Positions 5,433-29,933 of a stretch of 42,204 nucleotides of DNA are shown piece after piece (the first letter of the stretch is position 1; each line of letters begins with the position of its first letter). Origin of the DNA: a virus. Lineage: Duplodnaviria > Caudoviricetes. The position numbers and the translations under genes were made by a program. The notes under the pieces are model-generated. The model was given only the letters and a program-made list of their open reading frames with translations. It was not told the origin of the DNA and did no database searches. The stretch spans positions 1 to 42,204 of IMG/VR virus record IMGVR_UViG_3300039216_000097; one strand, 5' to 3'.

Positions 5433-5474
5433 TATGGCGCCGCCGCAGATCCACTGTAACGGCGCCATATTTCT
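5433..5474 (+). terminator. Probable intrinsic terminator at the convergence of the two transcription units
   Basis: TATGGCGCCG (5433-5442) pairs with CGGCGCCATA (5460-5469), followed by a short T run. Confidence 0.5.
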
Positions 5475-8271
5475 ACCGACGCAGCGGCAACCCCTTCGCC
5501 CGTGTCTGTTCTTTCTTTTTCAGTTTTGCCATCTCCACCAGGCTACGCCGCGCGATCGCGGTAGCGTCGGCGCCCGCTGAACGCATCTTTTCCAAGATGT
5601 CCTGCAGCTTCAAATAGTCGGGCTTGACGCTCTCCATCACCCAGGTGTTATAAGCGTAGGCCAACATATCGTAGAGATCGTCCAGTTCGTCCCCATGGAT
5701 CTTCTTCACCGCGTGACGGTCGTCGATCACCCGCGTTTGCACTGAGTTGAAGGTCTTGCGCATTGCCGTGGTCAGCACAATGTGAAAGTTGCTCAATCCG
5801 GTGTATAGCACCTGAGCATTGTCTGCCGGGTTCTTGTGCCCGTAAATCGCTGGCAGACCGTACTCCTGAAATACTTCAGCCATCTGCTCAAAATTGCTCT
5901 TGCCGGTGTCGTGGTGCTGATCCATGGCGGAGTCCATGCACACAAAAAGGTAACGCGGCCGTTCCTCGCCCATTTTCGGTTTAAGCCAGGTCTCGCAGAT
6001 TTTCTTGGCAAAATCCACCGCGCCCATCTTGCGCTCGACAATCTCTCCGGTCCCGTAGATGCGGCCATTCTCGTCCACGCTAAACCGCCCGGCGGCCGCC
6101 GCCGAGCTGCCAAAGCCAAAATCGATGCTGATGAAGTGGTTCCACCACCACTGATCGTTGATCGATGGGTAAGGGACCATCCATTCGGGCCGCATAAACC
6201 CAAAGTAAAGGCTCGCCGCGTTACACCAGCACCCATGGAGCAGTTGCATCTGGATCTCTGGCGTCTGCGAAAGCAGTTTGTTGACCTTGCCCGCGCCATA
6301 AAGCGGGTTGTCGGTCACCGCAGCCGGAAAGAAGGCTGTGGTCATGTGGACCAATTCGGCCCGCGACGGAGGCCACTTCCAACTTGATCCTTGGTACACG
6401 CGCCCTGACCAAACCGAGGAATTCGGGTCGTTGTCTCGTTCGGTCGCCGGAAAATGCAGTGGGCATTTATTGCGAAGAAACACAGCCATCTGCCAGCCAT
6501 GCCCCACACCGCCAGGGTTTGAAGTCAACCGCATCCTGCCCCGCAACCTTGGATCGGTGGGCGCCAGCCAGGGAAGGATCGAACGCACCCGGCGCTCCGG
6601 CTGCAATCCACTTTCGTCGATTCCGACCCAACTGCGGAGATTGCCGCGGTAGCGGCCCAGATCTTTGTCTTGTGCCAGGTAGCCAAACCGAATGCGCGCG
6701 CCGCCCTTCGAGCGCACCGCCTTGCGCGTTTGCTCGTCAAAAATGGGAAACTCCCACTGGCCGCCACCCGAGCGCTGTTTGTACTGCGCTCCTACCGACA
6801 GACAGAGCTTCTCCAAGCGGTCGGCAATCTGATCCATCTCACCGAGGCTTTCGCGCAGCAGCAGGCCGCGGAATGTGGGAATGTAGTATTCCTGCACCGC
6901 ATCGCCCACCAGAAAGTCGGTGTTATGAGTCGGAATCAGTTGCCGACCAGCCAGGTATAAATGCGTAGGCGAATCCACCGCAATGCAGCGCATTGGACGG
7001 TCTAGAACCTTCTCGACTGAAACAATAAACCGCCATCTCTGGCACCCTCGTATCTTGCTCTTGATCCGGCAGGACTTTCGTTTCAGTCTAAAAACTTGCA
7101 AAGAATCCGTCCAACTCACACGCCACTTTGGGCCGCAATCTCGCCCATAGAGTGTAGCGCGGCCCTCGCGCATCGTGGCTTTTAGTCCCAACCCCAACGC
7201 AAGAGCATAAACACCATCAGCTAACTCGCGATTGGTGGACGTGAATTCGGCTTTGCCATCTAGTCCGCAGTCGCCATCTGTATCCATCAAGCCCTGCAGC
7301 AATGCAAGTCGCTGTTCTTTCGAAGCGCGCAAATAGATCGCCGGGATATGCTTGTGGAAGAGGAGACCATGCTCGCGCGCAAGAGTCTTCCACTTCCAAA
7401 TACCCCAACTGTGCTTGTGACTTGGGTGGTGGACTACTTTGAATCCATCAGCGCGAATATAGTCCGCGATCTCGGCATCCTCAGATGTATAGCGCCCGCT
7501 GTCATGACTTCCATCTCCAAGCCAAACTCCCAATGTGTAGGGCGGCAAGGGAAGTTTGATTTCGCTGGTTTCCAAAGCCTCTGCGACCCTAATCGAATGA
7601 TTGGCGGCATCGCGCTTCACGCGTAATGTTTGGAGGATTTCCAGCGTGTTTCGAATCTGTCCGCGTGGCGGCTCTTCATAAATATACTTGCGATCACGAT
7701 TGAGCATTGTCACGCTGGCTTGAACACCAGGCTTTCGAGGATTGTCAATCGCGCGGCTCGGACGTTTGGCGCGCCGGTGCGCTTTTCTTTCTTCTGTCCG
7801 CGTTGCTTGAGCGTAACGCTCGGCAACAGTTGCCGTAAACCACCGATGCTCCCGATCGGCCACCAGTTCCGAGCCATCGTCGAAAGTTAACCGATAGGAA
7901 TCACCTATCTCAATTGGACTGATATAGGTTACTTGAGTCGGGTGGCCCGTCTCATCGAAAAGAGTATCGCCCACTTTTACTTCGCGAACTGTCGTCCATC
8001 CTCGTGACGTTGCAAGCGGCGTATCGAGGTCTAAACGCTTGCCACCTCCGCTCTGGCCGCCGAACAGCAGCATCTCCGCCAGCGAACACAGTGCCGCCTG
8101 CTGCGGTGAATCGCCAAGAGGGGATGGAAGAGGCCACCAGCACGGGTCAACGCCGGGCGGTGGTGGCACCCAGGCAGGAAAGTTGCGTGGGATGGTGAGG
8201 TTCGCCGGCTCAATCAGCATCGCAGGCGACGGCGGCGCCCAGGCCAGCGTCGGAATGTGCGCGGTGATCAC
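5473..8271 (-). CDS. terL: Terminase large subunit, intein-containing
   Basis: Walker A GGQSGGGK|T split by the intein, Walker B VGIDE, coupling motif LTSNPGG, nuclease motifs ISIDFG and DDLYDMLAY. Confidence 0.93.
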   Translation of the reverse strand: MITAHIPTLAWAPPSPAMLIEPANLTIPRNFPAWVPPPPGVDPCWWPLPSPLGDSPQQAALCSLAEMLLFGGQSGGGKRLDLDTPLATSRGWTTVREVKVGDTLFDETGHPTQVTYISPIEIGDSYRLTFDDGSELVADREHRWFTATVAERYAQATRTEERKAHRRAKRPSRAIDNPRKPGVQASVTMLNRDRKYIYEEPPRGQIRNTLEILQTLRVKRDAANHSIRVAEALETSEIKLPLPPYTLGVWLGDGSHDSGRYTSEDAEIADYIRADGFKVVHHPSHKHSWGIWKWKTLAREHGLLFHKHIPAIYLRASKEQRLALLQGLMDTDGDCGLDGKAEFTSTNRELADGVYALALGLGLKATMREGRATLYGRDCGPKWRVSWTDSLQVFRLKRKSCRIKSKIRGCQRWRFIVSVEKVLDRPMRCIAVDSPTHLYLAGRQLIPTHNTDFLVGDAVQEYYIPTFRGLLLRESLGEMDQIADRLEKLCLSVGAQYKQRSGGGQWEFPIFDEQTRKAVRSKGGARIRFGYLAQDKDLGRYRGNLRSWVGIDESGLQPERRVRSILPWLAPTDPRLRGRMRLTSNPGGVGHGWQMAVFLRNKCPLHFPATERDNDPNSSVWSGRVYQGSSWKWPPSRAELVHMTTAFFPAAVTDNPLYGAGKVNKLLSQTPEIQMQLLHGCWCNAASLYFGFMRPEWMVPYPSINDQWWWNHFISIDFGFGSSAAAAGRFSVDENGRIYGTGEIVERKMGAVDFAKKICETWLKPKMGEERPRYLFVCMDSAMDQHHDTGKSNFEQMAEVFQEYGLPAIYGHKNPADNAQVLYTGLSNFHIVLTTAMRKTFNSVQTRVIDDRHAVKKIHGDELDDLYDMLAYAYNTWVMESVKPDYLKLQDILEKMRSAGADATAIARRSLVEMAKLKKKEQTRAKGLPLRR
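6922..8037 (-). mobile_element. 372-aa class 3 intein with LAGLIDADG homing endonuclease
   Basis: Begins RLDLDTPL, ends IPTHN with +1 Thr. W in block B (EHRW), C in block F (MRCIAV), T in block G. Endonuclease motifs LGVWLGDGS and LQGLMDTDG. Confidence 0.9.
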
Positions 8272-9579: not shown

Positions 9580-11718
9580 CTACCTTCCCTTCTCGCCTTG
9601 CCTGTGTGCTGCGCCGGCGTCGCGCAGCGCCTTAAGACCACCGATGAGCTTTCCGGTGTTCTCTTGCGCCTGCACAGCGCGGTCGTCAAGCAACTTTACC
9701 ATTTTCGCATCTTTCCGGTCTGTCACGGGAAGCGCTTTGCCTATAAATTGCTGAGTCCATGCCTCAATCGCGGATCGGCCTTCGCCTTTAGGATCATCCG
9801 AAATCTTTGCGCTCAAAATGCGCACGTCCTTGCCCTCGGCGATCCACCGCTTCACCGTGCTCAACGCACTGTCAGGATTGTCAACGCCAATCGGATCCCC
9901 AATCTTTTCCAACCCCTCAAAACCGTGATATTCAGCCAGGGTTCCGTCGAGGTCGCTGCCATACCAGCTACTTTCAGAGTCCACCTCGGGCACAGTCACC
10001 CTCGTCAGTTCTTCCGGGCGAACATTGTTCGCGATCTTGCCATCCGCCAGCCGCACCCGCGCCCGCGCCGGCTGCCCATTGGCTGGATTGAAGTAGCGCA
10101 CCACCCCGGCCCGGCCATCGGCAAACTTGACCACTTCGCCTGGCTTCAGCGCGATCTGCGATGCGCCACTGCCGAACGAAACCGATCCTTGATTTCTGCG
10201 CGCGTCGCTTGCGCCTGGCTCTTGTAGGGCATCGCTACCTCCTTTCATTCGTACATCGGTTTGCCCACCGTTTCGGTCAATGATTGAGATCGTATCTACC
10301 GGAAACTCCGAGCCCTCCATCTCGCCGCGGCCCTTGTATTCTTCCGCGCGCTGCGGATCAATGTAGGCGATCGTTGCGTGAGGTTTGTAGCTGTCAAAAC
10401 TCGACGGCTCAAAATCTCCATGCTTCTGAATTCCATCGTTCATTCGCTCAAGTTCAGGCGACTGCACCTGAGCATGTACCACCGCCGCACCATTTGAATA
10501 CGGCGTAGGCGAAAATACGTCCGTCTTGCCCAGCCGCGCAGTGAACGTCTTTTGCGCTTCAATGAACTTGCGGATGCCATCTGTATTGTCGCCACGAATC
10601 CCATACCGCACTGTCACATGGTTTCCGACGTCGCCGACATCCTTGCCATCCCCGGCCAGGTGCTCGTCTGGAATCTTGTCGCGAAACGTATCCAGGGCCT
10701 CGGCCGCATCCGACCCGTCGGGGATATTCGCCTGGGTATTGCCAAACTTGTATTTCGTCTCACCGGCAGGCGGTTTCGTCTCATTTTTATGCGTTTTGAC
10801 CTCGTTTTTATGCGCCGCCGCAGCCCTGAACCGATCTCGCGTGGCCTCTTTATGCACGGCGGTAATCTCCGCACTCAGCCGCGAGGCCTCCGCCGTGTCG
10901 CCCCGCGCTTCCGCCTTCTTCTGCTTTTCGTAGAGCGGCTCCGTCTGTTTCAGCGCCTCGACCTGAGCCTTCGTACCCACCTGGATCTCAGAAACTTGAT
11001 TTGCCGCTCCCGCGCCGCCTGTGCGCACGGCATACTGATCCATATTCAAGCCATTTGAATCGATTTTCTCTTTCCGCTCCACCGGCAGCCGCGTCTCGAT
11101 ATGCTCTCGGAGCCGCTCAAGCGCCGAACGTGAGTTCGCCGAAATCCGCGCTCCCAAATTATCGATGTTGGTTTCTGGAGGCTTGCCACGCTCCGTTTTC
11201 GTCTGCTGCGACTCAGCGGACTTTACCCGCGATCCCTCCAGCTTGGCCCCAGGCACTGCGGAAACCACCGCTCCGGCCATAGCCTCCAAAACCGGCTGCT
11301 GTAGCTTCGCTGAGTTTCGGATCGCCGCCGCGTCGTTGCTCCCCTGCTCCACCGGCCTCTGTGCAGCCTCCGCGGTCGTTCCAGATGGCTTCTCTCCGCG
11401 CCCCGCGCGGCTGTTTTTAGGCACATACAGGTCCGCGTAAGTTCCCAAATCTGGCGTGTGCCCAGCGTCGCGCCGCACAATCGGCAGCCCTGTCTCTTCA
11501 TCGATCGCAGTCACTTTTCCGGCCGGGTGGCTCAGCACTTTGCCCGTAGTTTTAGCGGACCGTTGGCCGCCGTTCGCCGGCAGCTCTCGCAGCATCGCCC
11601 CGGCCGGAATTCCCTTCGGCGGCGTCAGCAAGCGCAACAACGCGCCAGCCGGCAAATTCTTCGGCAGATTAAGCCATTCGGGCGCAGCGGGTGAAGATAA
11701 AGCGGTGGCCATCGTCAT
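9580..11718 (-). CDS. Multidomain 'polyvalent' protein: RelA/SpoT-like NTase + 2H phosphoesterase + SH3/KOW-like + HAD phosphatase
   Basis: RVKS..S...K, D.LGARI and EIQV.T; HVT (H367) and HAT (H447); LKPGEVV....GRAGVV; DLDGTL and LLDDRA. Confidence 0.8.
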   Translation of the reverse strand: MTMATALSSPAAPEWLNLPKNLPAGALLRLLTPPKGIPAGAMLRELPANGGQRSAKTTGKVLSHPAGKVTAIDEETGLPIVRRDAGHTPDLGTYADLYVPKNSRAGRGEKPSGTTAEAAQRPVEQGSNDAAAIRNSAKLQQPVLEAMAGAVVSAVPGAKLEGSRVKSAESQQTKTERGKPPETNIDNLGARISANSRSALERLREHIETRLPVERKEKIDSNGLNMDQYAVRTGGAGAANQVSEIQVGTKAQVEALKQTEPLYEKQKKAEARGDTAEASRLSAEITAVHKEATRDRFRAAAAHKNEVKTHKNETKPPAGETKYKFGNTQANIPDGSDAAEALDTFRDKIPDEHLAGDGKDVGDVGNHVTVRYGIRGDNTDGIRKFIEAQKTFTARLGKTDVFSPTPYSNGAAVVHAQVQSPELERMNDGIQKHGDFEPSSFDSYKPHATIAYIDPQRAEEYKGRGEMEGSEFPVDTISIIDRNGGQTDVRMKGGSDALQEPGASDARRNQGSVSFGSGASQIALKPGEVVKFADGRAGVVRYFNPANGQPARARVRLADGKIANNVRPEELTRVTVPEVDSESSWYGSDLDGTLAEYHGFEGLEKIGDPIGVDNPDSALSTVKRWIAEGKDVRILSAKISDDPKGEGRSAIEAWTQQFIGKALPVTDRKDAKMVKLLDDRAVQAQENTGKLIGGLKALRDAGAAHRQGEKGR

Positions 11719-19828: not shown

Positions 19829-20016
19829 CTTTCGCTCCGCTTCGAATAATCAGCTTCCACCAACAGCGCCGCAATCGCCCCTGCCTGGAATGCCTTCCAC
19901 TCCGGCATCTGATTTCTGCGAGACCAGTCGCCTGGATGCTCTGCTTTGAACCATTCCAAAAACTGGTCCCACAAAACAGGTTGATTGCTTTTCAGATCTG
20001 ATTTCTGTTCGCTCAT
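19825..20016 (-). CDS. 63-aa hypothetical protein
   Basis: ATGA overlaps on both sides; GGAAGGG RBS. Confidence 0.6.
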   Translation of the reverse strand: MSEQKSDLKSNQPVLWDQFLEWFKAEHPGDWSRRNQMPEWKAFQAGAIAALLVEADYSKRSER

Positions 20017-23000
20017 TTCCCTTCCAAGCCTCCGCGCGCCATCTTCACCGGGATGATGTAGACCGCTGCCTTTTTCAGACTAGCCCAAACATCTGGCTGT
20101 TTGCCGTTGTCGTAGCGCACCCGCCAGTATTCATCCGTTGCTCGATCCGGCTTGCGAGTGTAATCAACCGGCCCTTTTGGGTCCAGATCCATCGGCTGGC
20201 AGCGCAAAACACGCTTCGGGCCGCTGTTGTCGGTCATCGAAAGCCGTCCGGCCAAAAAACTTACATTGATGGGGCCATTGCCAACGCAACTGGTTACTAC
20301 CCCCTCGGGCTTGCAGGGCTTTTGCATCGCCTGGGTAGAGGTCGTCTCATAGACCCAGTCGATTCCAGCTCCGTTATCGTTGAAGCGCCCCGGCGTGCGC
20401 GCATTCACCGTGCCGCTCTCATCCGTGCTCGTATAGGCCAGTTGCGACACGTAAAAATCCGATGTCGTCTGCGAAAGCCCGTCCGCGCTCAGCGGCAGCG
20501 GCGGAGGGTTCGGTACGGTTCGATAGATGCGCTTGCAGATGTAGGCGGAAACGTCGTTAAAGCTCCAGCGGCGGCTGGCCTCTTGCGAGATCTCTTTCTG
20601 CGCAAAAGTCGAAAAATGGATTGGGTTCAGCCAGCCTTCCAAATAACTGAGGCAAAATTCCTTATTGGGAACCATCGAGTTGCCCACCGGGGCCTGGATG
20701 CGCACCGTGTGCGTGTCGTCGTCAATCGCCACAGAGATCGTGGTGGCGGCCGCCCAGTTGATCGTGCCCCACTCCCGCGGAATCTCCTTGGTCATCAGGT
20801 CCGGCGTGGTCTCATCGAACTTATAAAACCCTGTCCGATGCACAAAGCCGATGAATTGCCCGTTTTGCGCAAATGCGCGCGGCCCGCAAGGCCCCACTCC
20901 ATTTCCTTGATCGCCGCTCCAGCGCGCTTTGGCGTCCCAGCTTGACGGCGCCCCAACGCCCGGCGTCAAAACTATCCCTGAACGCTCCCGCATCGCGTAA
21001 ATCTGATTCCGATATTCCAACAACCCCCAGCAGTTCTCTCCGGAATTGGTTGTGATGGGCAGCGCGCTGGTCGAGGCGTCGAAGCTCTCATAATCTCCAG
21101 CCAGCGAGATCACCGGCCCGCTGGTGTAACCAGGAACCCCGCAGATGCTCACCCGGTTGCACGTCATCAGGTAATCCACGCGCACACCGGCGGGCGGAGC
21201 CATCAGCGTCAACCTGTCGGTGGTGTTATTTCCCTCGGTTCCCGCATCGATTTCTCCGGTCAAGTATTCGTCGGTGAAGTTGAAGGTTCCCGAGGTTGTT
21301 GCATTGTCCAAAAAAACCGTTGGAATGATGGTGATGCTATCCGATTGAAAGCTGTTCGGATAGATCTGGTTTTGCGTTGGAACCTGGAGATCGACCAGAC
21401 CAATCCAGGCAAAGGGGCCATCTTGCGTGCCATCAGCCACAGTCCAATTGATTAGTCTGCCGATGATGTTCTGTGGCCCGGTTGCGACTTTAAAAACACA
21501 TATTTCCCAGCCATCTTCATCCACAATATACTGAGATACCGCTGCCGGCGTAAACCCTGAAATCGTCTCGTTGCGGTTCATCCAAGCTGGCACCGCAAAG
21601 CGGTATCCCTGCGTTCCGTTGATCCCACCGTCGGCCGTGTCTGCAACAATGTTGCCGCCTGGGCCGGTTCCATTTACGGTCACCGGAGAGCTTCCGGTCG
21701 CCGTTTTCAAAATAAATAAAATGTCGGTCACGTTATAAGCGCCGACCTTTGCATAAGCATTGATGGGAGGTTCCGTTGCTCCATTGGCCACATCCGCTTC
21801 ATACACGTTGATAATGGAAATCTGCGGATAATTTACCACCGCGGAGAGCGTTACTTCCACCGCGTCGTTGGCCACCGTATCGATAATCGAGTTAGAAGGT
21901 CCAAGCGGCGTTTCACCAATTGAATTCGAGTAGCTGAGTCGCACCCAGACATCGCGGCCAGCTGGGAAACTACCCTGTGGCAAAGTGGCTGTGTTCGTCT
22001 TGGGTGGGTAGGTGCCACTCGACGGAAAAGATGTGATAATCACAGTCGAACCCAGTGCGTACCTGCCATAAAGTTGAAATTGGTCGCTCGTGGGCGGTGT
22101 CGAGCCATAAGAAACCGATTTCACGTAGACATTCACACCGGTTACAGTCGTGCCATAACTGCTGGCCAGCGAAAGCTCCACGGCCTGACCTGCCGCGACC
22201 GTTGTAATATTCGATATAGATCCGGCAGTTGTCTCACCATATGAATTGGTCAGAGTCAACAAAACGTAAACGGTCTGATTGGTTGAGAAATCTCCGCCAC
22301 TCGCAAGTTCCAGAGTGGGCGCGCCTGGCACCGGCACTGTGCTGCCCGCTGGCACGCGCGCAATCACCGCTTCAGTAATTGGCGTGGGCAATTGCCCCGG
22401 CGTGATGCGCGCGGAGTTCAAAGTTGGAATTGTGGTTCCCGCGGCGGTTCCCGTGATCGTGTGATTTGTCCCAAGCGGCACATCGGTTGCCGCTTGCAAA
22501 TAAGATGATTGAGCCGGAGATGAAGCGCCAAATGCCACGTCTGCTTCGTAGATATTCACTCCGGTAATTGCATACGGAGATACCAAATCTGAAAGCCATC
22601 CGGCCAGCGCAGCCAGCGCAGGCACACTGACCTGCACTCCCTGCCCAGATCCTGTGGTGCTGATCGATGCCACAATCCCCGCCACCGTCTCGCCCATGCC
22701 ATTCACGAAGGTCAGCAAAACGTAGATGGTTCGATCGGCAGCAAACGCTCCACCACCTACCAATGTGAGCACGGGCGCCGGCGGAAACGGAATGCGGTCG
22801 GCGATGACCATTGTCTGCTCTTTCCACGTCACAGGCGTCAGACCAGCGGCAATCTGCGCTGCGGAGAGCGCTTCTGTGACTTCCGCGCCCTCTGCGCGCG
22901 ATCGTTGGGCCGATCCCGCCACAACCGTGGTATCAACAGGCCATGCCGGTTCATTTGGTCCGGTATAACCCAGGTTCTGCGCCTGATAGGTATGACCGTT

Positions 23001-23603
23001 GCCCTGCTGTCCGCTGTTCGAAATCGATGGGCAAGCAACTTCCTGCGCATAGACAATCGTTGTCGGCAGCCAATACCAGCCAAAGGGCTTCATACCCAGC
23101 GGATCGTATTTGAGCGTTTTTGGATTGTAGACCGAGCATCCCGCTGACGGTGTGGTCAGCGGCGCCGCGCCCGTCGCAAACAGCGCGCTGGAATAGGCTG
23201 AAAAAACCAGATTCGATGTTTGAGTGTCGATCTTGTGGCTGTTCGCGGGCGGCGTAAACATGCCGACAGGAACCGGCTGCATCCGGCCAGTTCCCACCGG
23301 GTATTCACGCTCCAGCGTGCCCGTCATGCTAAAACGCAAAAGCTGCTGAAAAAATGGATCACCGGCAAATTCCGGCTCATACTGAAAGTCCCACAGGCCC
23401 GTACCCGGCGAAGGCAATCCTTGACAAATCAGGTTATTCCCCGCGCGCGTCGTGGCGGCCAGGCTGGAGCCGGTCGAGTCGCGCGTGAAGTCCGTGTTTT
23501 TGCAGACCGCGGCGCAGCCGGCGGGCAGGTTGGTAGGGTCATCCTGATCCACCTGCCCCAGCATACGGCTGATCTGTATCGCCGTGCCAGACCATTGCGG
23601 CAT
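20013..23603 (-). CDS. Tail hub/nozzle-like structural protein with inserted FN3-like repeats
   Basis: About 1200 aa, beta-rich, with a C-terminal GVGPCGP.A...GFVH.TG.Y.FD propeller-like pattern; located between adaptor and ejection genes (P22 gp10 / T7 gp12 slot). Start taken at ATG 23603 (GGAG RBS). Confidence 0.6.
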   Translation of the reverse strand: MPQWSGTAIQISRMLGQVDQDDPTNLPAGCAAVCKNTDFTRDSTGSSLAATTRAGNNLICQGLPSPGTGLWDFQYEPEFAGDPFFQQLLRFSMTGTLEREYPVGTGRMQPVPVGMFTPPANSHKIDTQTSNLVFSAYSSALFATGAAPLTTPSAGCSVYNPKTLKYDPLGMKPFGWYWLPTTIVYAQEVACPSISNSGQQGNGHTYQAQNLGYTGPNEPAWPVDTTVVAGSAQRSRAEGAEVTEALSAAQIAAGLTPVTWKEQTMVIADRIPFPPAPVLTLVGGGAFAADRTIYVLLTFVNGMGETVAGIVASISTTGSGQGVQVSVPALAALAGWLSDLVSPYAITGVNIYEADVAFGASSPAQSSYLQAATDVPLGTNHTITGTAAGTTIPTLNSARITPGQLPTPITEAVIARVPAGSTVPVPGAPTLELASGGDFSTNQTVYVLLTLTNSYGETTAGSISNITTVAAGQAVELSLASSYGTTVTGVNVYVKSVSYGSTPPTSDQFQLYGRYALGSTVIITSFPSSGTYPPKTNTATLPQGSFPAGRDVWVRLSYSNSIGETPLGPSNSIIDTVANDAVEVTLSAVVNYPQISIINVYEADVANGATEPPINAYAKVGAYNVTDILFILKTATGSSPVTVNGTGPGGNIVADTADGGINGTQGYRFAVPAWMNRNETISGFTPAAVSQYIVDEDGWEICVFKVATGPQNIIGRLINWTVADGTQDGPFAWIGLVDLQVPTQNQIYPNSFQSDSITIIPTVFLDNATTSGTFNFTDEYLTGEIDAGTEGNNTTDRLTLMAPPAGVRVDYLMTCNRVSICGVPGYTSGPVISLAGDYESFDASTSALPITTNSGENCWGLLEYRNQIYAMRERSGIVLTPGVGAPSSWDAKARWSGDQGNGVGPCGPRAFAQNGQFIGFVHRTGFYKFDETTPDLMTKEIPREWGTINWAAATTISVAIDDDTHTVRIQAPVGNSMVPNKEFCLSYLEGWLNPIHFSTFAQKEISQEASRRWSFNDVSAYICKRIYRTVPNPPPLPLSADGLSQTTSDFYVSQLAYTSTDESGTVNARTPGRFNDNGAGIDWVYETTSTQAMQKPCKPEGVVTSCVGNGPINVSFLAGRLSMTDNSGPKRVLRCQPMDLDPKGPVDYTRKPDRATDEYWRVRYDNGKQPDVWASLKKAAVYIIPVKMARGGLEGK

Positions 23604-23624
23604 TGGTTCGCTCCGCTCACAGTG

Positions 23625-23793
23625 GTCAGTTTTCAACTATCAGTGATCAGTCAAAATGCGGCCAGTTTGCTGTGAGTCTTATCTTGATTTTCCCTCAGTT
23701 ATTTCGCGCCGTTACGCGCACCGCAGGAAATCTCAACTCAGGGAGGCTTTGCTCGGTTCAACTGATCACTGACAACTGATCACTGACAACTGT
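23625..23793. repeat. Inverted heptamer-repeat arms enclosing an inner stem-loop
   Basis: TCAGTGATCAGT at 23640-23651 is the reverse complement of ACTGATCACTGA at 23761-23772; CAACTGATCACTGA is repeated in tandem. Confidence 0.7.
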
Positions 23794-23795
23794 TT

Positions 23796-24875
23796 CTACT
23801 GATGCACCGTCGGGCAGAGAATTTCCAGGGTCATCTCGCCATTCAAAATGGGGCTGACCCCGCTGCCGGAGTTCGCCAACGCTGGAACCGTGATAGCCGT
23901 GGCAGCCGAAATGGTGACTGGACCCGTGGTTGCCAAGGCGCGGCCATTCAGCACGCCGCCGCCCAAGGTTATTCCACTTACCGCCAGAATGTTGCCATTC
24001 ACGGTAGAGGTCGCCACAGACGTGAAGGCGCTCCCAGCCACAAAAACGACATTCGCAGCCTGGGCGCCGTTGACCAAAGCAATCGTCTGCCCGCTGGCCA
24101 GGTCGATGGTTGATCCGGCCACAAACACAAACGTGGCGTTGGGGTTGCCCTGCGCATCCAAGATGATGCCGGTAGGCATCGTCAAACCAGCCGAGCCCAC
24201 ATAAACGCCGGGCGTATATGTCGAAGCGCTCGACCCGTTGCCGCCGGTGCTGAGGTTGCTCAAGCCAGAGAGCGTGGCGGTCAATCCCTGATAATACGTG
24301 ATCGCAGCCGTCAGCGCGGTCTGCGCGGCCTGTGCGCCTGCATTATTCACCGCTGCCGGCGCGGTCAAAACGCCGGGTGGGAAACCCGTCTCGGTCGCCG
24401 TGGCATACGATCCGATGTTGCCGCCGGTGACAACCGTATTCCCGCTGTTGGTGATGCCCGCCGAGGCCAGCACCGCAAAGGCCGCGGCCACCCCCAACTG
24501 TGTTGCAACCGGGGAGGGGGTGGGTAATACCGAGGCGTTCGAATAGGGCGTGTTGGCGGCAAATTCAACTCCTCCAGGATTGAACATCCGCAGATAGAAG
24601 TTCGTCTGCGCGGCCAATCCGCTGCCGGTTACCACGCGCTGGATCTGCCCATAGTAGCCGTCCAGCCACTCGTTCAAAATGTACGGCGTCACGGGCGGCG
24701 GCGCCTGTGTCGGGTTGTTGAGCGGAACCTGCACCAGCACTTGCGGGTCTGCAATGTTTGTCAGCGGTATCAGGTCACCCCCCGCCGGATAGATCCCGGA
24801 GAAGTTGACCTTCACGATGTTCCGATCCGGATTGGTGGCCGGACTCGTCTGTAACAACGTCAATCCCAGACTCAT
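23796..24875 (-). CDS. Putative virion protein containing an ice-binding-like DUF3494 beta-solenoid domain
   Basis: LG.AA.FAVLA..GITNSG.TVV.G.IG, TPGVY, ILDAQGNPNA.FVF, L.NGAQA.NV.F..GS, GNILA...ITL, LNGRALA.TG.VT. AAGGAG RBS. No signal peptide. Confidence 0.88.
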   Translation of the reverse strand: MSLGLTLLQTSPATNPDRNIVKVNFSGIYPAGGDLIPLTNIADPQVLVQVPLNNPTQAPPPVTPYILNEWLDGYYGQIQRVVTGSGLAAQTNFYLRMFNPGGVEFAANTPYSNASVLPTPSPVATQLGVAAAFAVLASAGITNSGNTVVTGGNIGSYATATETGFPPGVLTAPAAVNNAGAQAAQTALTAAITYYQGLTATLSGLSNLSTGGNGSSASTYTPGVYVGSAGLTMPTGIILDAQGNPNATFVFVAGSTIDLASGQTIALVNGAQAANVVFVAGSAFTSVATSTVNGNILAVSGITLGGGVLNGRALATTGPVTISAATAITVPALANSGSGVSPILNGEMTLEILCPTVHQ

Positions 24876-24970
24876 GATGCTCTCCTTAAAGTTGATTTGT
24901 CCGGCCAGGGTCTTGCCTTCGCTACATCAACTATCGGCTGTCTGCTGTCGGCTGCGGCGTTTTGCGCCGA

Positions 24971-25708
24971 TCACCACCAGTTCCACCCGCAGCCGCGCGC
25001 GCGCTGCGCGTTCGATCCGGCCCGCGCGGTCACACCCTGCTTTTGGAGCACAATCTTGGCCACAATGTCGTCCGCCGCGGCCTCGCACTCCGCCAGCATG
25101 GCCTGATAGCTTGGGTTGCCCGCTTCCACGCCGATCAGTGGAATTGTGCCCGCCGTCAAACAGACCTCCATGTCGGGGTCTACCACCAGCACATCTTCGT
25201 CCTTCACCAGCGCTGGAGGGTTGAACCGGCCGTCAACCAAAATGTCGATGCGGTTATTCATCGGCGTCACAAACAGTTGGTTGCCGCGCCAGCACCAGTT
25301 CATGCCGCCGCCAAAGAACCCGCCTCCCGAGTAGGCCCCTGGCACCGCCATACCTGGCAAAATCGTCTTCACCTCGCGCGCTTCGCGGTAGCTGCGCTCC
25401 CGGCTGCCGGCCAGCTTCCACCAGATGTACAGTGGCTCGTACATCCCGTAAAGCGGTTTTTCCTTTTGCTGATAAACGGCCAGTGAGGTCAACCCCTGGT
25501 TTGTCGGGTTTACGTCGGAGTCCATTGCGTTCGGGATCTCCACCATCTGTTCCAGGTTCGTCCCAGTCGAGCGCTTGATGTAAAGCGTCTGACGGCGATA
25601 GGCAAAGTTGATCTTTGGCCCAAGATAGCCCTCTTTCAGCCATCCGTTCGGATCATCGTCTCCGATGATCGATCGCACCGTCTCTTTCACATCAAAATAC
25701 GTGTTCAC
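24971..25708 (-). CDS. Putative head-tail adaptor
   Basis: Helical N-terminus (VR.IIGDD....W......INFAYRR), about 245 aa, located between capsid and hub genes. Confidence 0.55.
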   Translation of the reverse strand: MNTYFDVKETVRSIIGDDDPNGWLKEGYLGPKINFAYRRQTLYIKRSTGTNLEQMVEIPNAMDSDVNPTNQGLTSLAVYQQKEKPLYGMYEPLYIWWKLAGSRERSYREAREVKTILPGMAVPGAYSGGGFFGGGMNWCWRGNQLFVTPMNNRIDILVDGRFNPPALVKDEDVLVVDPDMEVCLTAGTIPLIGVEAGNPSYQAMLAECEAAADDIVAKIVLQKQGVTARAGSNAQRARGCGWNWW

Positions 25709-25796: not shown

Positions 25797-27038
25797 CTAC
25801 TCTTCTCCTGGCAATGCCGTCGTTTCCGCCGCGGGGATTTCCTCGTTGGGGTCGATCTTCGCTCCGCGGGACTTCTTGTACGAACCTCGCGTGTGACCGG
25901 CGGGGGACTCCTCGGGCTTTTCCGGCTCCTGACTGCTGTTCTCCGGTCCCTGCTCCTCGAACCCTTGCAAACGGAGTTTGCGCTCGGCCAGCGCCACCTC
26001 GCGTTCTTCGCCGCGCAAGCTCATCAACCACGCATCGGCCATGGGATAACCCGCCATGTACGTGGTAAACGTGTTCACCGGCGAACCGCAACTGCAGAAC
26101 GGCGTGTCGGGCTCGGGCTCCAGCTTTTTGCAACTCTGGCACTTCCGCAACCGGCTGTCGGCCTTTGCCTCCGTCTCCGCGCCGGTCAGCGAAAGCATCT
26201 GGTTCAACCAGCTTTTCTCGCCAGATTTCGGTTGCGGGGCATAGCCCAGGTGGATCGCCCAGCGATACCATACCCGATCATTCTCGCTGATTTCCCGAAT
26301 GCTTTGATCCTCACTCCACCTCTGCTGCGCACGGCTGATGGTGGCGTCGGCAAAACGCTTTTGGCCCGCAAACATGCGCTCGATGTACTCCTGCAGGTTG
26401 ACCTTCGTCGTGCGATAGGTCTTCAGCGCTTCTTTGCCGATCATCCGATAATGCGCAATTGGAACCTCGATGATCTGCTTGGCGGGGTCTTCCTTCGCCA
26501 ACTCGCGCTCCAGCGTGTGTACGTCGCCCTTGAATACCAGCAGCCCGTAAATCCGCCGAGCGTCTTTCGGGGTCGGTGGCAGCACCACGCCGGCCGGGGC
26601 CATGAAGAGTGGTGAAAAATGCTCCAGAAATGAGTAGGCAATTGCAATCGGCAAAAGATACTTCACCTGCTGCTGTGGAACGACCTCGCCTGGGTTTCCC
26701 ACTCCCTTGGCGCCGATCATTCCGCCATATATCTTGGGAAAGCGGCACGTCCACAGGTGCCCCACGCGGTCTTTGCCGTCGTAGGGCAAACGAATGCGAG
26801 ACACATCGGGAGGCAGTCGCACGTCTGAAGGCGAAGGAACCTTGTACTGCTTCAGCAGCCCTTGCAATCCAATCTCGACGGGATTGAAATTGACCACGGT
26901 GAAGGGTTCCACCTGGCCGGTCTCCATCAACTCTTCGTATTTTGCTCGCGCTTCCTGAGCAAAAAGCCTCTGCGCCTCACCCACTTCTGAGTTATCGATT
27001 GCAGTCGTGCCTTGATACCCCAGCGCCGCCGTTGCCAT
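25797..27038 (-). CDS. Hypothetical protein with C-terminal zinc ribbon
   Basis: 413 aa; CQSC...CSCG; GGAGA RBS. Confidence 0.8.
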   Translation of the reverse strand: MATAALGYQGTTAIDNSEVGEAQRLFAQEARAKYEELMETGQVEPFTVVNFNPVEIGLQGLLKQYKVPSPSDVRLPPDVSRIRLPYDGKDRVGHLWTCRFPKIYGGMIGAKGVGNPGEVVPQQQVKYLLPIAIAYSFLEHFSPLFMAPAGVVLPPTPKDARRIYGLLVFKGDVHTLERELAKEDPAKQIIEVPIAHYRMIGKEALKTYRTTKVNLQEYIERMFAGQKRFADATISRAQQRWSEDQSIREISENDRVWYRWAIHLGYAPQPKSGEKSWLNQMLSLTGAETEAKADSRLRKCQSCKKLEPEPDTPFCSCGSPVNTFTTYMAGYPMADAWLMSLRGEEREVALAERKLRLQGFEEQGPENSSQEPEKPEESPAGHTRGSYKKSRGAKIDPNEEIPAAETTALPGEE

Positions 27039-27111: not shown

Positions 27112-27789
27112 TCATCCCGCCGACAAGTGACTGTTCATTCCCATATCGCTCATCAGCCCATCTCGCACCCGCTGTGCGGTGGCGCCGATGGTCGCCAGCA
27201 TCGGGTCAACGATTCCCCGATGAATTCGGTTTACATCCTCGGCGTACTGTTCTGCCCGCCGTTCTTCCCGCACGCGCGCCAGATAAAGATGCCTGCTCAG
27301 CCTGGCCGCTTCGTTGCCGGTCATCGCGTCCATTTGCCGCATCCACTTCAAGATCTCTGTCTTCCAAAAATCGGCGCCGTGCAATTCCTTTTCAAAGCTG
27401 TCATTGACCATCTGGTATTCGCCATGTCGCGGGAACTCACCCAGCAAGCGAGTCACCTCATCCTGGCTGGTAATGTTTTCCCAATCAACCTGACTGCCCC
27501 AGACATTTGCCGGGAACCACCGCTCCAAACAGTATCCCTGGCCGTCATACTTTGGCAGCCACATCTCGCCAGCGCTCCAGGCCTCGGGTTCCACCTCCGG
27601 AACAGGTTCAACGTCGTCAGCGCACAATTGCGGCATGTGCCGCATTTGCCCAAAGCGTTGCTCTAGCACATGCTCTGCCAGCACAACCCTCCACAGCGGC
27701 TTGCCAAATGGATTCAACCCACCAAAACGGGTGATCTCCTTCACCAACGCCATCGGAATGTCGAGCAATGCGCGCTCAGAGGATTGCAT
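27112..27789 (-). CDS. Hypothetical phage protein
   Basis: Long ORF with G.NPFG.P.WRVV and LERW.P motifs; start at ATG 27789 after CAGGA. Confidence 0.75.
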   Translation of the reverse strand: MQSSERALLDIPMALVKEITRFGGLNPFGKPLWRVVLAEHVLEQRFGQMRHMPQLCADDVEPVPEVEPEAWSAGEMWLPKYDGQGYCLERWFPANVWGSQVDWENITSQDEVTRLLGEFPRHGEYQMVNDSFEKELHGADFWKTEILKWMRQMDAMTGNEAARLSRHLYLARVREERRAEQYAEDVNRIHRGIVDPMLATIGATAQRVRDGLMSDMGMNSHLSAG

Positions 27790-28579
27790 GGTTTCCGTCC
27801 TGTTTGGCTTTCGCGTCCGCGGCGACAATAGTCAAACCCACATCGTCGGGTTCACCAAATGCCAGCATTTGCGTTTGCATGAACCTATCGGCTGAAACTT
27901 CATACACCGAACAATAACCCAATTCCGGTCCGTTTCTGACTGGAATCTTTAAGTTTCCTCCACTCAAATGATTTTGAAAGGAATCGGATTCGCCAATAAA
28001 AGCAATCACACCAGACAAAACCCTGGCATCATTTCTTCGAAGTTGCACGGTTGGAAAAAGACATTTCCGGTTGAATTTCTCCAAAATAGCTCCGCCAATC
28101 TCTGCTGGCGTCAGACTTACGGCCATGCGATGCACGACAGCCTCATCGGGGGCTCCGATCCTGGTTGCTCCAACTGCTTTCCCGTAGATCAGTGGCGCAT
28201 CAATCCTCAACATGGATGCTTCAAATGTTTGGCCGCTCCACCTGCATTGAAATCTTTTTTCAAACGGAACCTCTTTTCGCGCTGGCAAAGAATATCGTTT
28301 CAAAATTCCATCCATGCGCAACGGGATGTCCGTAAAGTTCAGCACTGTGCAAACCGGGGTCGCCCCTAACCGGGTTTTTTCTGATTTCACTTCCATTTGA
28401 AAACGACGCTCTTCATATCCTGCACTTACATCGTCCGCCAGCGTAGGGAGAAGCGCCAATATCACACGCCAGTTTTCAAAGATCAGCCGCAAGTTGTTCC
28501 AAATCTGTCCAATCTTCAGCCTTGCCATTGTCTCACCAAGTTTCTTCATTGGTTTCAGGCCAGAGCGACGACCCTTCAT
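27776..28579 (-). CDS. Hypothetical protein, diverged paralog of 25797-27038
   Basis: Collinear similarity blocks (see findings); start codon uncertain. Confidence 0.6.
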   Translation of the reverse strand: MKGRRSGLKPMKKLGETMARLKIGQIWNNLRLIFENWRVILALLPTLADDVSAGYEERRFQMEVKSEKTRLGATPVCTVLNFTDIPLRMDGILKRYSLPARKEVPFEKRFQCRWSGQTFEASMLRIDAPLIYGKAVGATRIGAPDEAVVHRMAVSLTPAEIGGAILEKFNRKCLFPTVQLRRNDARVLSGVIAFIGESDSFQNHLSGGNLKIPVRNGPELGYCSVYEVSADRFMQTQMLAFGEPDDVGLTIVAADAKAKQDGNHAIL

Positions 28580-28628: not shown

Positions 28629-29933
28629 CTACACCGCGTCCGCAAATCCCGGTTCAATGCCCAGCGTGGTGATCACGCCATTCCACCATGGCAGCTTGCC
28701 ATAGTAGTTGCTGCTGTCCTGGTAGTACATGTCAAATTCGCTCAGCCAGCGGCCGTTTTGGTCCATCCGCGGCCACCAGAGAGTGTTGCCTCCGGCAAAC
28801 GGCAAAAACTTCTGCGATCCGGGATAGCGCACCGCGCGTAGCCCACTCTTGCGCAGCGAATACAGCTTGTCGATCGCGGCGGTCGATTCCGAGATCACCT
28901 TGCGGCCGGAGATCACCCACTCATCGGTGCCCTTCGGTCCGATGTCATAGTTGGCATTCTTGCCATTTTCCATGAAATAAGTGCTCTTGGCAAAACCCAG
29001 CGTCTCGGCCGAGGTGGCCTGGGCAAAGTGGGTGTACCAGAAGCAGTCGTCGCCACCGTCCATCCAGCTTGCAGTGCCGAGCGCCTGCTGCTGCCGGGCC
29101 TTGAAGATGCTGATCGTTCCCAACGTCAGCGTTCCGTTGGTGGCATTCAGTGCAGGCGCTTGTACCCAGCTCAGACTCCGGTCGACACCGTCGTAATCGC
29201 CCGTGTTGCTGGGGTCCACAAAGTATTCCAGGCCCTGCAACCACAGCGGAGTGCCGCTGGTGACGCCCGTGGGAATGAAGTTGCAGCCTGCGGCCAGGCC
29301 GGCCGGAACGTTGTCGATGGTCACCGTATCGCCGGCGCCAATCGAGGTCGAAAACTTGTCGGTGCTGGTCACCACGCCAATCACGTTCAGGTTGGCATCG
29401 GTCACCTGATACCGCTCATAGGCATCCAGCAGACGGGCGCCAAAACTGACGTTCGCCAACGGCACGATGTTGCCGCCGGCATAGCTCGGGTCAACGGTGG
29501 CCAACACGCCATTGTTGAAGCCTTGCAGATAAGTATCCCGACTGTGCGCGTGCTTGGTTTTGGCGTCGCTGACCATACGCGCTACCGGATCAATCGCGCT
29601 CACATCCTTGCCGCCCTCGGCGATCCACTTCATCAACTGCGTTGCCGTCCAAGCCGAAATGACCGGCACAGGCGAGATGATGAACTGCGAATACCCAGGG
29701 CCAAAGCCCTGCGGCAGACTGCCACCGTCCGGCTGCCAGCCTCCGGAGTGGCCGCCAATCGAGAACTGAATCCCGTGACGGTATTCCTGGAGCGATACGT
29801 CGGACCCCTTCTCCACCCAAAACATGCTTTCCAGCTTGGAGTCCATGTTCTGGGTCAGCTCAATATCCCGAGCCACCATCTGCAAATCCAGCGGCACTTG
29901 GGCCGCTGCAGTTCCAAAATCCTGAACAGCCAT
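28629..29933 (-). CDS. Major capsid protein
   Basis: 434 aa, directly after the scaffold-like gene, strong AAGGAG RBS and GC-biased codons. The GLE.FVD...T.DY.GVDRS...W motif is typical of P22-coat-like capsid proteins. Confidence 0.8.
   Translation of the reverse strand: MAVQDFGTAAAQVPLDLQMVARDIELTQNMDSKLESMFWVEKGSDVSLQEYRHGIQFSIGGHSGGWQPDGGSLPQGFGPGYSQFIISPVPVISAWTATQLMKWIAEGGKDVSAIDPVARMVSDAKTKHAHSRDTYLQGFNNGVLATVDPSYAGGNIVPLANVSFGARLLDAYERYQVTDANLNVIGVVTSTDKFSTSIGAGDTVTIDNVPAGLAAGCNFIPTGVTSGTPLWLQGLEYFVDPSNTGDYDGVDRSLSWVQAPALNATNGTLTLGTISIFKARQQQALGTASWMDGGDDCFWYTHFAQATSAETLGFAKSTYFMENGKNANYDIGPKGTDEWVISGRKVISESTAAIDKLYSLRKSGLRAVRYPGSQKFLPFAGGNTLWWPRMDQNGRWLSEFDMYYQDSSNYYGKLPWWNGVITTLGIEPGFADAV

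Follow-up and report, generated by a model that had tools for sequence, protein, structure and literature searches.

A possible plug-in cassette of ice-binding-type domains in phages of peat and permafrost Acidobacteria, with a putative role in adsorbing virions to ice

The Ig-like domains of T4 Hoc are optional, exchangeable, weak-binding domains on phage structural proteins. To our knowledge, the molecular basis of phage persistence through freeze-thaw in northern peat is not known. Among cellular proteins, SfIBP_1 of Shewanella frigidimarina (6BG8) has a DUF3494 domain as a tethered tip that grips a surface, and is presumably anchored to the cell by Ig-like repeats. The protein is described as an ice adhesin in the available part of its source (PMC12337378). 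In viruses, three PF11999 genes on Arctic contigs, with a link to Flavobacteriales, have been presented as host cryoprotection genes (PMC11515562), and one viral antifreeze gene as a cryoprotection gene (PMC8407431), as far as the accessible portions of both papers go. The accessible portions of three other papers add nothing on virions (PMC11645318, PMC10970483, PMC10405475), and a literature search covering few subscription journals yielded no description of virion proteins with DUF3494.

The fusion gene and its DUF3494 domain

The window, meaning the whole stretch of phage DNA that was analysed (42,204 nucleotides), ends without terminal overlap, so the genome is probably incomplete. The contig start falls inside a repetitive coding stretch (1-395). 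The gene of interest, P0001, is laid out as follows.

24882..24887, minus strand: ribosome-binding site AAGGAG, 6 nt before the P0001 ATG
23796..24875, minus strand: fusion gene P0001, encoding a small phage beta-sandwich protein (the carrier) into which DUF3494 is inserted (ORF, Pfam, alignment, model)
24540..24875, minus strand: N-terminal part of the carrier, aa 1-112, five predicted beta strands (15 insert-free homologues; models)
24516..24539, minus strand: linker 1, Pro-rich, aa 113-120, with aa 116-119 at pLDDT <50 (AF2 model)
23877..24515, minus strand: DUF3494 / PF11999 beta-solenoid with bracing helix, aa 121-333 (Pfam, model superposition, face alignment)
23853..23876, minus strand: linker 2, Gly/Ser-rich, aa 334-341, with aa 334-339 at pLDDT <50 (AF2 model)
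23796..23852, minus strand: last strand of the carrier, aa 342-359, completing the beta-sandwich, with the stop codon (alignment; models)

P0001 is a 359-aa ORF read on the minus strand from 24875 to 23796, and the plus frame over 23796-24875 is interrupted by stops. The initial annotation had claimed a strong ribosome-binding site and the absence of a signal peptide or lipobox, and all of this holds. The AAGGAG lies 6 nt ahead of the ATG, our own hydrophobicity heuristic finds no signal peptide (score 0.87, threshold 2.2), and a lipobox is excluded because the sole Cys is residue 354. In a permafrost run not flagged as a possible source (X3), one 40.8-kb contig covers the region with 10 differences, and the six listed differences that fall within the P0001 gene are all synonymous. 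An assembly chimera or chance ORF is ruled out by this single contig, the synonymous differences and the PF11999 match. Contigs identical to parts of the gene occur in the RNA runs X7 and X11, which lack a silent control and are not taken as expression.

The inserted domain was identified with the Pfam profile that the initial annotation had named as a check. PF11999 matches aa 135-326 well above its gathering cut-off (E 7.6e-33, 114.4 bits versus 28.7) and is covered from profile position 1 to 206 of 208. The claim of a complete DUF3494 domain is thereby borne out, with an extent of aa 121-333 in place of the earlier estimate of about 127-331. NCBIfam NF045625 (IBP_CFB) scores 59.8 bits, under its curated cut-off of 400 bits. 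All 25 PDB sequence matches of P0001 are DUF3494-type ice-binding or antifreeze proteins, the closest being EfcIBP (6eio, E 1.4e-21) and 5uyt. An AF2 model built on a 26-row alignment has a pLDDT of 83.7 and shows two compact domains. In this model, aa 121-333 superpose on AnpIBP (7bwx) with a Z of 30.8 and an rmsd of 1.4 Å over 198 residues. Against four solved ice-binding proteins the model reaches Z 27-31, versus 12.8 for the next fold. The insert is thus predicted to be a discontinuous beta-solenoid braced by a long helix (aa 181-196), which is the IBP-1 fold.

The carrier and its place in the morphogenesis operon

The regions flanking the solenoid had been annotated as an unrelated N-terminal domain and a C-terminal strand, together with a suggestion to look for homologues lacking the ice-binding part. 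Such homologues exist: when shorter proteins were searched with aa 1-125, 15 of 21 candidates proved to be insert-free, at 123-134 aa. These match aa 1-112 and then aa 342-359, and the gap between the two is the whole DUF3494 domain. The last strand occupies positions 347-353 in the P0001 model and 118-124 in the insert-free model. By this alignment the N-terminal part, together with the last strand, makes up a carrier domain separate from the solenoid, so that a simple N- or C-terminal fusion is ruled out, and the aligned proteins indicate that DUF3494 is a true insertion into one loop. The N- and C-termini of DUF3494 are probably at the same end, which would allow the domain to take the place of a short loop.

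When 1.84 billion representatives were searched with a profile, 59 matched; 58 of these are 68-163 aa long, the exception being the query itself. Among 156 candidates of similar length, another five proved to be fused. Two insertion sites are used: one after about aa 112 (P0001, P0017, P0018, P0019 and the distant L016), and a second about 12 residues earlier (P0020, P0021, L002, L005, L011). In a carrier-only tree of 26 rows and 115 columns, the insert-free P0003 is sister to the fused P0020 (bootstrap 97), and the insert-free P0002 is sister to the fused P0019 (bootstrap 99), nested among fused forms. The domain tree conflicts with this topology, as the P0017 domain groups with the L029 domain from another carrier family (0.959) and the L016 domain with domains of the other loop (0.913). 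Given this disagreement and the insert-free sisters among fused forms, the domain has therefore been gained, lost and exchanged.

The carrier is a small beta-rich, phage-restricted protein encoded in a morphogenesis operon. Its insert-free form is modelled as a small all-beta domain (pLDDT 79); in Atlas, the clusters closest to it are 87-95% viral and have no Pfam annotation. PHROG searches gave no match with a function, and PDB sequence, PDB profile and VIA searches gave no name. Foldseek searches of PDB and BFVD returned nothing at E 0.001 or better, an absence that is no proof of a new fold. The best Z against solved decoration or cement proteins is 4.6, within noise, and a first pattern scan of GTDB for the carrier found no match. 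The initial annotation had placed the insertion in a decoration protein of the head or neck. That the recipient is a small phage protein stands; since no solved fold or annotated family matches the carrier, its designation as a decoration protein is putative and comes from context.

Kinship between the carriers of family A and family B is suggestive, on the evidence of an hhalign probability of 47% (E 1.9e-4) and a similar motif pattern. The family B carrier is small and encoded 2-4 genes after annotated major head genes, and it takes DUF3494 in the loop equivalent to the earlier of the two sites. Tandem insert-free and fused paralogues of family B occur in L017, L019 and L022, and one family B carrier (L020:6784-7341) bears a different small insert in the same loop. 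Atlas rows for H-type lectin and Gp53-like proteins, at 0.75, provide a lead only for the family B protein.

The neighbourhood of P0001 contains the following features.

24971..25708, minus strand: upstream neighbour of 245 aa at a conserved position (synteny); candidate head-tail adaptor from gene order
23619..23793, minus strand: long imperfect hairpin of 7-nt periodic units right after the P0001 stop (folding, z -5.06)
20013..23636, minus strand: downstream neighbour, a virion structural protein of about 1200 aa (PHROG matches of homologues) whose place in the gene order is tail hub/nozzle-like
28629..29933, minus strand: probable major capsid protein, 434 aa (weak, by transitive homology)

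In all 12 viral or metagenome loci, as far as they extend, the carrier gene keeps the same neighbours; the 12 loci represent about six distinct phages, three of the loci being fused and nine insert-free, and L003 has one extra gene upstream of the carrier. It lies directly before the hub-like gene in all five prophage-like loci examined. Homologues of the N-terminal domain are thus tied to phage structural operons. The window gene order resembles what we take to be a P22-like podophage operon.

The virion-structural identity of the downstream gene comes by transitive homology only, four of five prophage homologues matching phrog_3287 'virion structural protein' (best E 3.4e-13, aa 3-629). For the 434-aa gene, two of five prophage homologues weakly match phrog_14242 'major head protein' (E 3-4e-4), and this capsid candidate is 85-91% identical in L002-L004, L007, L008 and L010. 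Direct library matches of window genes are confined to the terminase large subunit, a fibre-like protein and some early genes; capsid, portal and adaptor could not be named in this way, and the 245-aa neighbour has no library match. The placement of P0001 between adaptor and tail hub in the initial annotation is thus upheld as a fixed position in a virion operon, with neighbour names that have no direct library match.

Hairpins of other 7-nt units occupy the same intergenic place in related loci (L002:11066-11160, L004:6400-6500, L005:1185-1262), and the post-stop hairpin may determine how much carrier is expressed relative to hub. The window's hairpin unit also recurs in many unrelated contigs with other flanks, like a REP-type element, and its single match in each of three of five genomes is uninformative as a host marker.

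Several other features of these operons were observed. Two minus-strand window genes (25797-27038 and 27776-28579) are paralogues of no known function (24-28% identity, tblastn) that separate the capsid candidate from the adaptor candidate; in L003 the shorter of the two is at another position. A GroES-like gene, recognised by eye from its translation, lies between scaffold-like and capsid-like genes at L002:4732-5034. The terminase large subunit (window 5473-8271, minus strand) contains a LAGLIDADG domain at aa 319-371 with intein-like segments, and is probably interrupted by an intein there. A 712-aa protein encoded after ejection-protein-like genes (window 9580-11718, minus strand) matches the 2H phosphoesterase family PF13563 (E 2.3e-8) and, below cut-off, weakly Acb1; it is a possible counter-defence protein.

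A phage lineage of DUF3494 domains, its hosts and habitat

A domain-only search recovered 60 IMG/VR loci at 35-82% identity, and all 30 viral carriers scanned pass PF11999. Once the domain is masked, the 54 unique carriers group by single linkage into 14 families, the largest of which may be chained. One carrier is a tail sheath (L047:79-4344, phrog_2839, E 7.7e-24). The same domain clade occurs in three proteins of 1290-1769 aa (L018:2896-6768, L031:1816-7125, L056:2962-7257), and an 824-aa protein carries the clade domain twice (L040:2102-4576). In L013, L017, L020, L029 and L061, clade carriers are encoded 1-4 genes after PHROG-annotated major head genes.

In a FastTree phylogeny of 149 unique domains, 51 of 56 viral domains form one clade (support 0.905) and five lie elsewhere. 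Cellular domains were drawn from a GTDB scan with one peptide pattern, as the best 80 of 486 matches; the phage clade contains none of the resulting 93 and is at most 45% identical to the best domains found among those 80 of 486. A recent capture from a host gene is therefore unsupported, the best GTDB domains (best 80 of 486) lying at or below that identity and outside the clade. In 401 genomes of the probable host order, the best domain scores 167 bits, compared with 317 for that of the window, itself included in the profile. Signal-like N-termini, by our own hydrophobicity heuristic, were found in none of 50 viral carriers versus 70 of 89 cellular proteins. The cassette is under purifying selection, with a dN/dS of about 0.09: values were 0.08-0.10 in four of five pairs, and the fifth was saturated and undefined. 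Taken together, the sequences suggest that the P0001 domain is a member of a phage-specific, exchangeable cassette family rather than a one-off capture from a cell. This cassette is optional, having been gained, lost and swapped between carriers, across many virion proteins and, in the carrier described here, two loops. Among cultured phages (50,697 records), neither the five carrier and capsid queries nor the domain had a match.

The listed sequencing runs that contain DNA of this phage are all peat or permafrost metagenomes, runs with small shares of its words being left out. Setting aside two possible source runs, five runs in four studies hold at least half the words. This search sees near-identical DNA and so places this phage rather than the whole cassette family. 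The sample habitat, which the initial annotation had asked to have checked, is therefore cold. In the order of Acidobacterium sp. record L110, which we take to be Terriglobales, the capsid candidate is present in 23 of 401 genomes and the carrier family in 29; in the phylum of L080 (Conexibacter), the carrier was found in none of 301 genomes. The host tallies include genomes marked unpublished (G014, G024, G028, G032, G036, G042). In five annotated prophage-like regions from other genomes, the carrier genes encode 121-144 aa and have no insert. Many genomes with neighbouring handles (G006-G058) each hold one copy of the morphogenesis cluster, a pattern as in a conserved or domesticated prophage or a gene-transfer-agent-like element.

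Particle display, ligand and comparison with known systems

The insertion, predicted fold, operon place, phage clade, purifying selection, lack of a secretion signal, and occurrence in peat and permafrost are established. The best explanation of P0001 is a virion accessory protein that displays DUF3494 and whose particle adsorbs to ice, a reading to which we give about an even chance. Its first part, display of the domain on the virion, had been proposed in the initial annotation and is likely, and we count it as supported; given display, ice is a reasonably probable ligand. The carrier would dock on the particle as a multi-copy accessory at the neck, tail base or capsid, and the domain would hang on two flexible linkers without breaking the carrier. 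Its flat threonine-lined face would be held outward from the particle, where this B face may bind the ice-water interface through ordered water, as AnpIBP does. Binding would probably be weak per copy, with avidity over copies. Virions may thereby be kept in unfrozen films where hosts concentrate, or recrystallisation damage may be limited over winter. We advance more tentatively the broader proposal that phages of peat and permafrost Acidobacteria share their own ice-binding-domain lineage as a plug-in cassette and so form ice-adsorbing virions. In that equally tentative joint reading, capsid-region proteins, tail sheaths and large tail proteins would be the cassette's targets.

The evidence on the ligand comes from the putative ice-binding face, which was mapped by sequence alignment to AnpIBP segments rather than by model coordinates. 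The available part of the AnpIBP study lists the B-face segments and reports that S153Y and T156Y each keep 17% activity (PMC7277481). By alignment, S153 and T156 correspond to S282 and T285 of P0001, and the phage clade keeps Ser at 282 in 48 of 51 domains and Thr at 285 in 49 of 51. Column 4 of the putative B face comprises T142, T321, T303, T285, D258 and T232 (five Thr, one Asp). Residues of the bulky or charged test set occupy none of the 24 outward positions, a set that excluded Asp, with D258 lying among the 24. A flat small-residue face with a Thr/Ser row thus appears to be present in P0001. The row does not discriminate it from cellular controls: five or six Thr/Ser of six are found in 39 of 51 phage-clade domains versus 55 of 93 cellular ones from mixed habitats (best 80 of 486).

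That the domain is displayed but has another ligand, such as exopolysaccharide, host glycan, peat organic matter or mineral, and serves as a weak adhesin near hosts, is less likely, though it is favoured by several of these observations. The Thr row is common to cellular relatives, and the face shows clade-specific changes: position 287 is Val or Ile in 49 of 51 phage-clade domains versus Gly in 88 of 93 cellular ones (best 80 of 486), a change at the face edge that could point to another ligand. A general display site would be expected to take other inserts, as the family B loop of L020:6784-7341 does. Against another ligand, the P0001 face is made of small residues, carries almost no charge and lacks aromatics at its 24 outward positions, whereas aromatics are usual in glycan-binding faces; the listed runs with this phage are also all peat or permafrost. 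The accessible part of one source places PF11999 in many ice-free habitats and in substrate-binding proteins, which favours another ligand, and also links Ser, Gly or Thr in B-face column 2 to possibly weaker ice binding (PMC12337378). Column 2 of P0001 reads G, P, G, A, T, G, assuming that this column is AnpIBP column 2, and if the columns correspond, a weaker-binding pattern would fit the phage clade.

Much less probable is a non-virion protein, made in the infected cell and freed at lysis, where it would act as a cryoprotectant of the host or of progeny. The available text on three PF11999 genes from Arctic viral contigs takes this view (PMC11515562), and the carrier is without structural annotation. 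However, the carrier that encloses the domain is conserved, also occurs without it and has a fixed place among particle genes, and the same clade occurs inside a tail sheath; a free protein would not need such carriers. A structural add-on, either a near-neutral recombination passenger or a rigid spacer or shield with a stabilising or masking effect on the particle, is also improbable, for although insert-free sisters exist and are common and conservation of the outward B-face positions (0.74) is barely above the domain average (0.70), a dN/dS near 0.09 and use in about 14 carrier families argue against neutrality, and tethering by low-confidence linkers would be a poor design for a brace.

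If the ice-adsorbing reading of P0001 is true, virus adaptation to freezing acts on the particle rather than the host, and the carrier offers, at no fewer than two tolerant loops, a natural scaffold for display; should the ligand be other than ice, P0001 is a well-placed DUF3494 example with another target. The ice question is directly testable, as it concerns one 210-residue domain, and as nature supplies both matched carriers that have or lack the insert and prophage-like elements of Acidobacteria.

Compared with AnpIBP (7BWX) and EfcIBP (6EIO), the P0001 domain has the same predicted fold, with no capping insertion in the alignments, and aligned B-face Ser/Thr equivalents of AnpIBP S153 and T156. 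It differs from both in having no signal peptide, in being nested in a phage protein and in belonging to a separate phage clade. P0001 is likewise unlike microbial type-1 ice-binding proteins in lacking a secretion signal or lipobox anchor. The viral genes reported earlier (PMC11515562, PMC8407431) also place DUF3494 in viral genomes and are read as host-protecting, with no insertion into a particle protein mentioned in the available text. The three DUF3494 proteins of Hyperionvirus sp., the sole significant viral structure matches in BFVD, are likewise in a viral genome. Viral ice-binding genes have so far been read as help for the host, and the architecture described here would put them on the particle. 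If the particle itself carries the domain, PF11999 hits in soil viromes may often be structural rather than auxiliary metabolic genes. What is new here is a carrier with two insertion loops and matched insert-free sisters.

SfIBP_1, with a Z of 27.2 to the P0001 model, resembles the proposal for P0001 in using DUF3494 as a tethered, surface-gripping tip. SfIBP_1 is cell-anchored and hyperactive with an all-Ala column 2, whereas P0001 is proposed to be a virion loop insertion and has a different face. No likeness of the carrier to Hoc or other solved decoration proteins was detected. The likeness to the Ig-like domains of T4 Hoc lies in optional, exchangeable display; the P0001 fold differs, and its ligand would be inorganic if the best reading holds.
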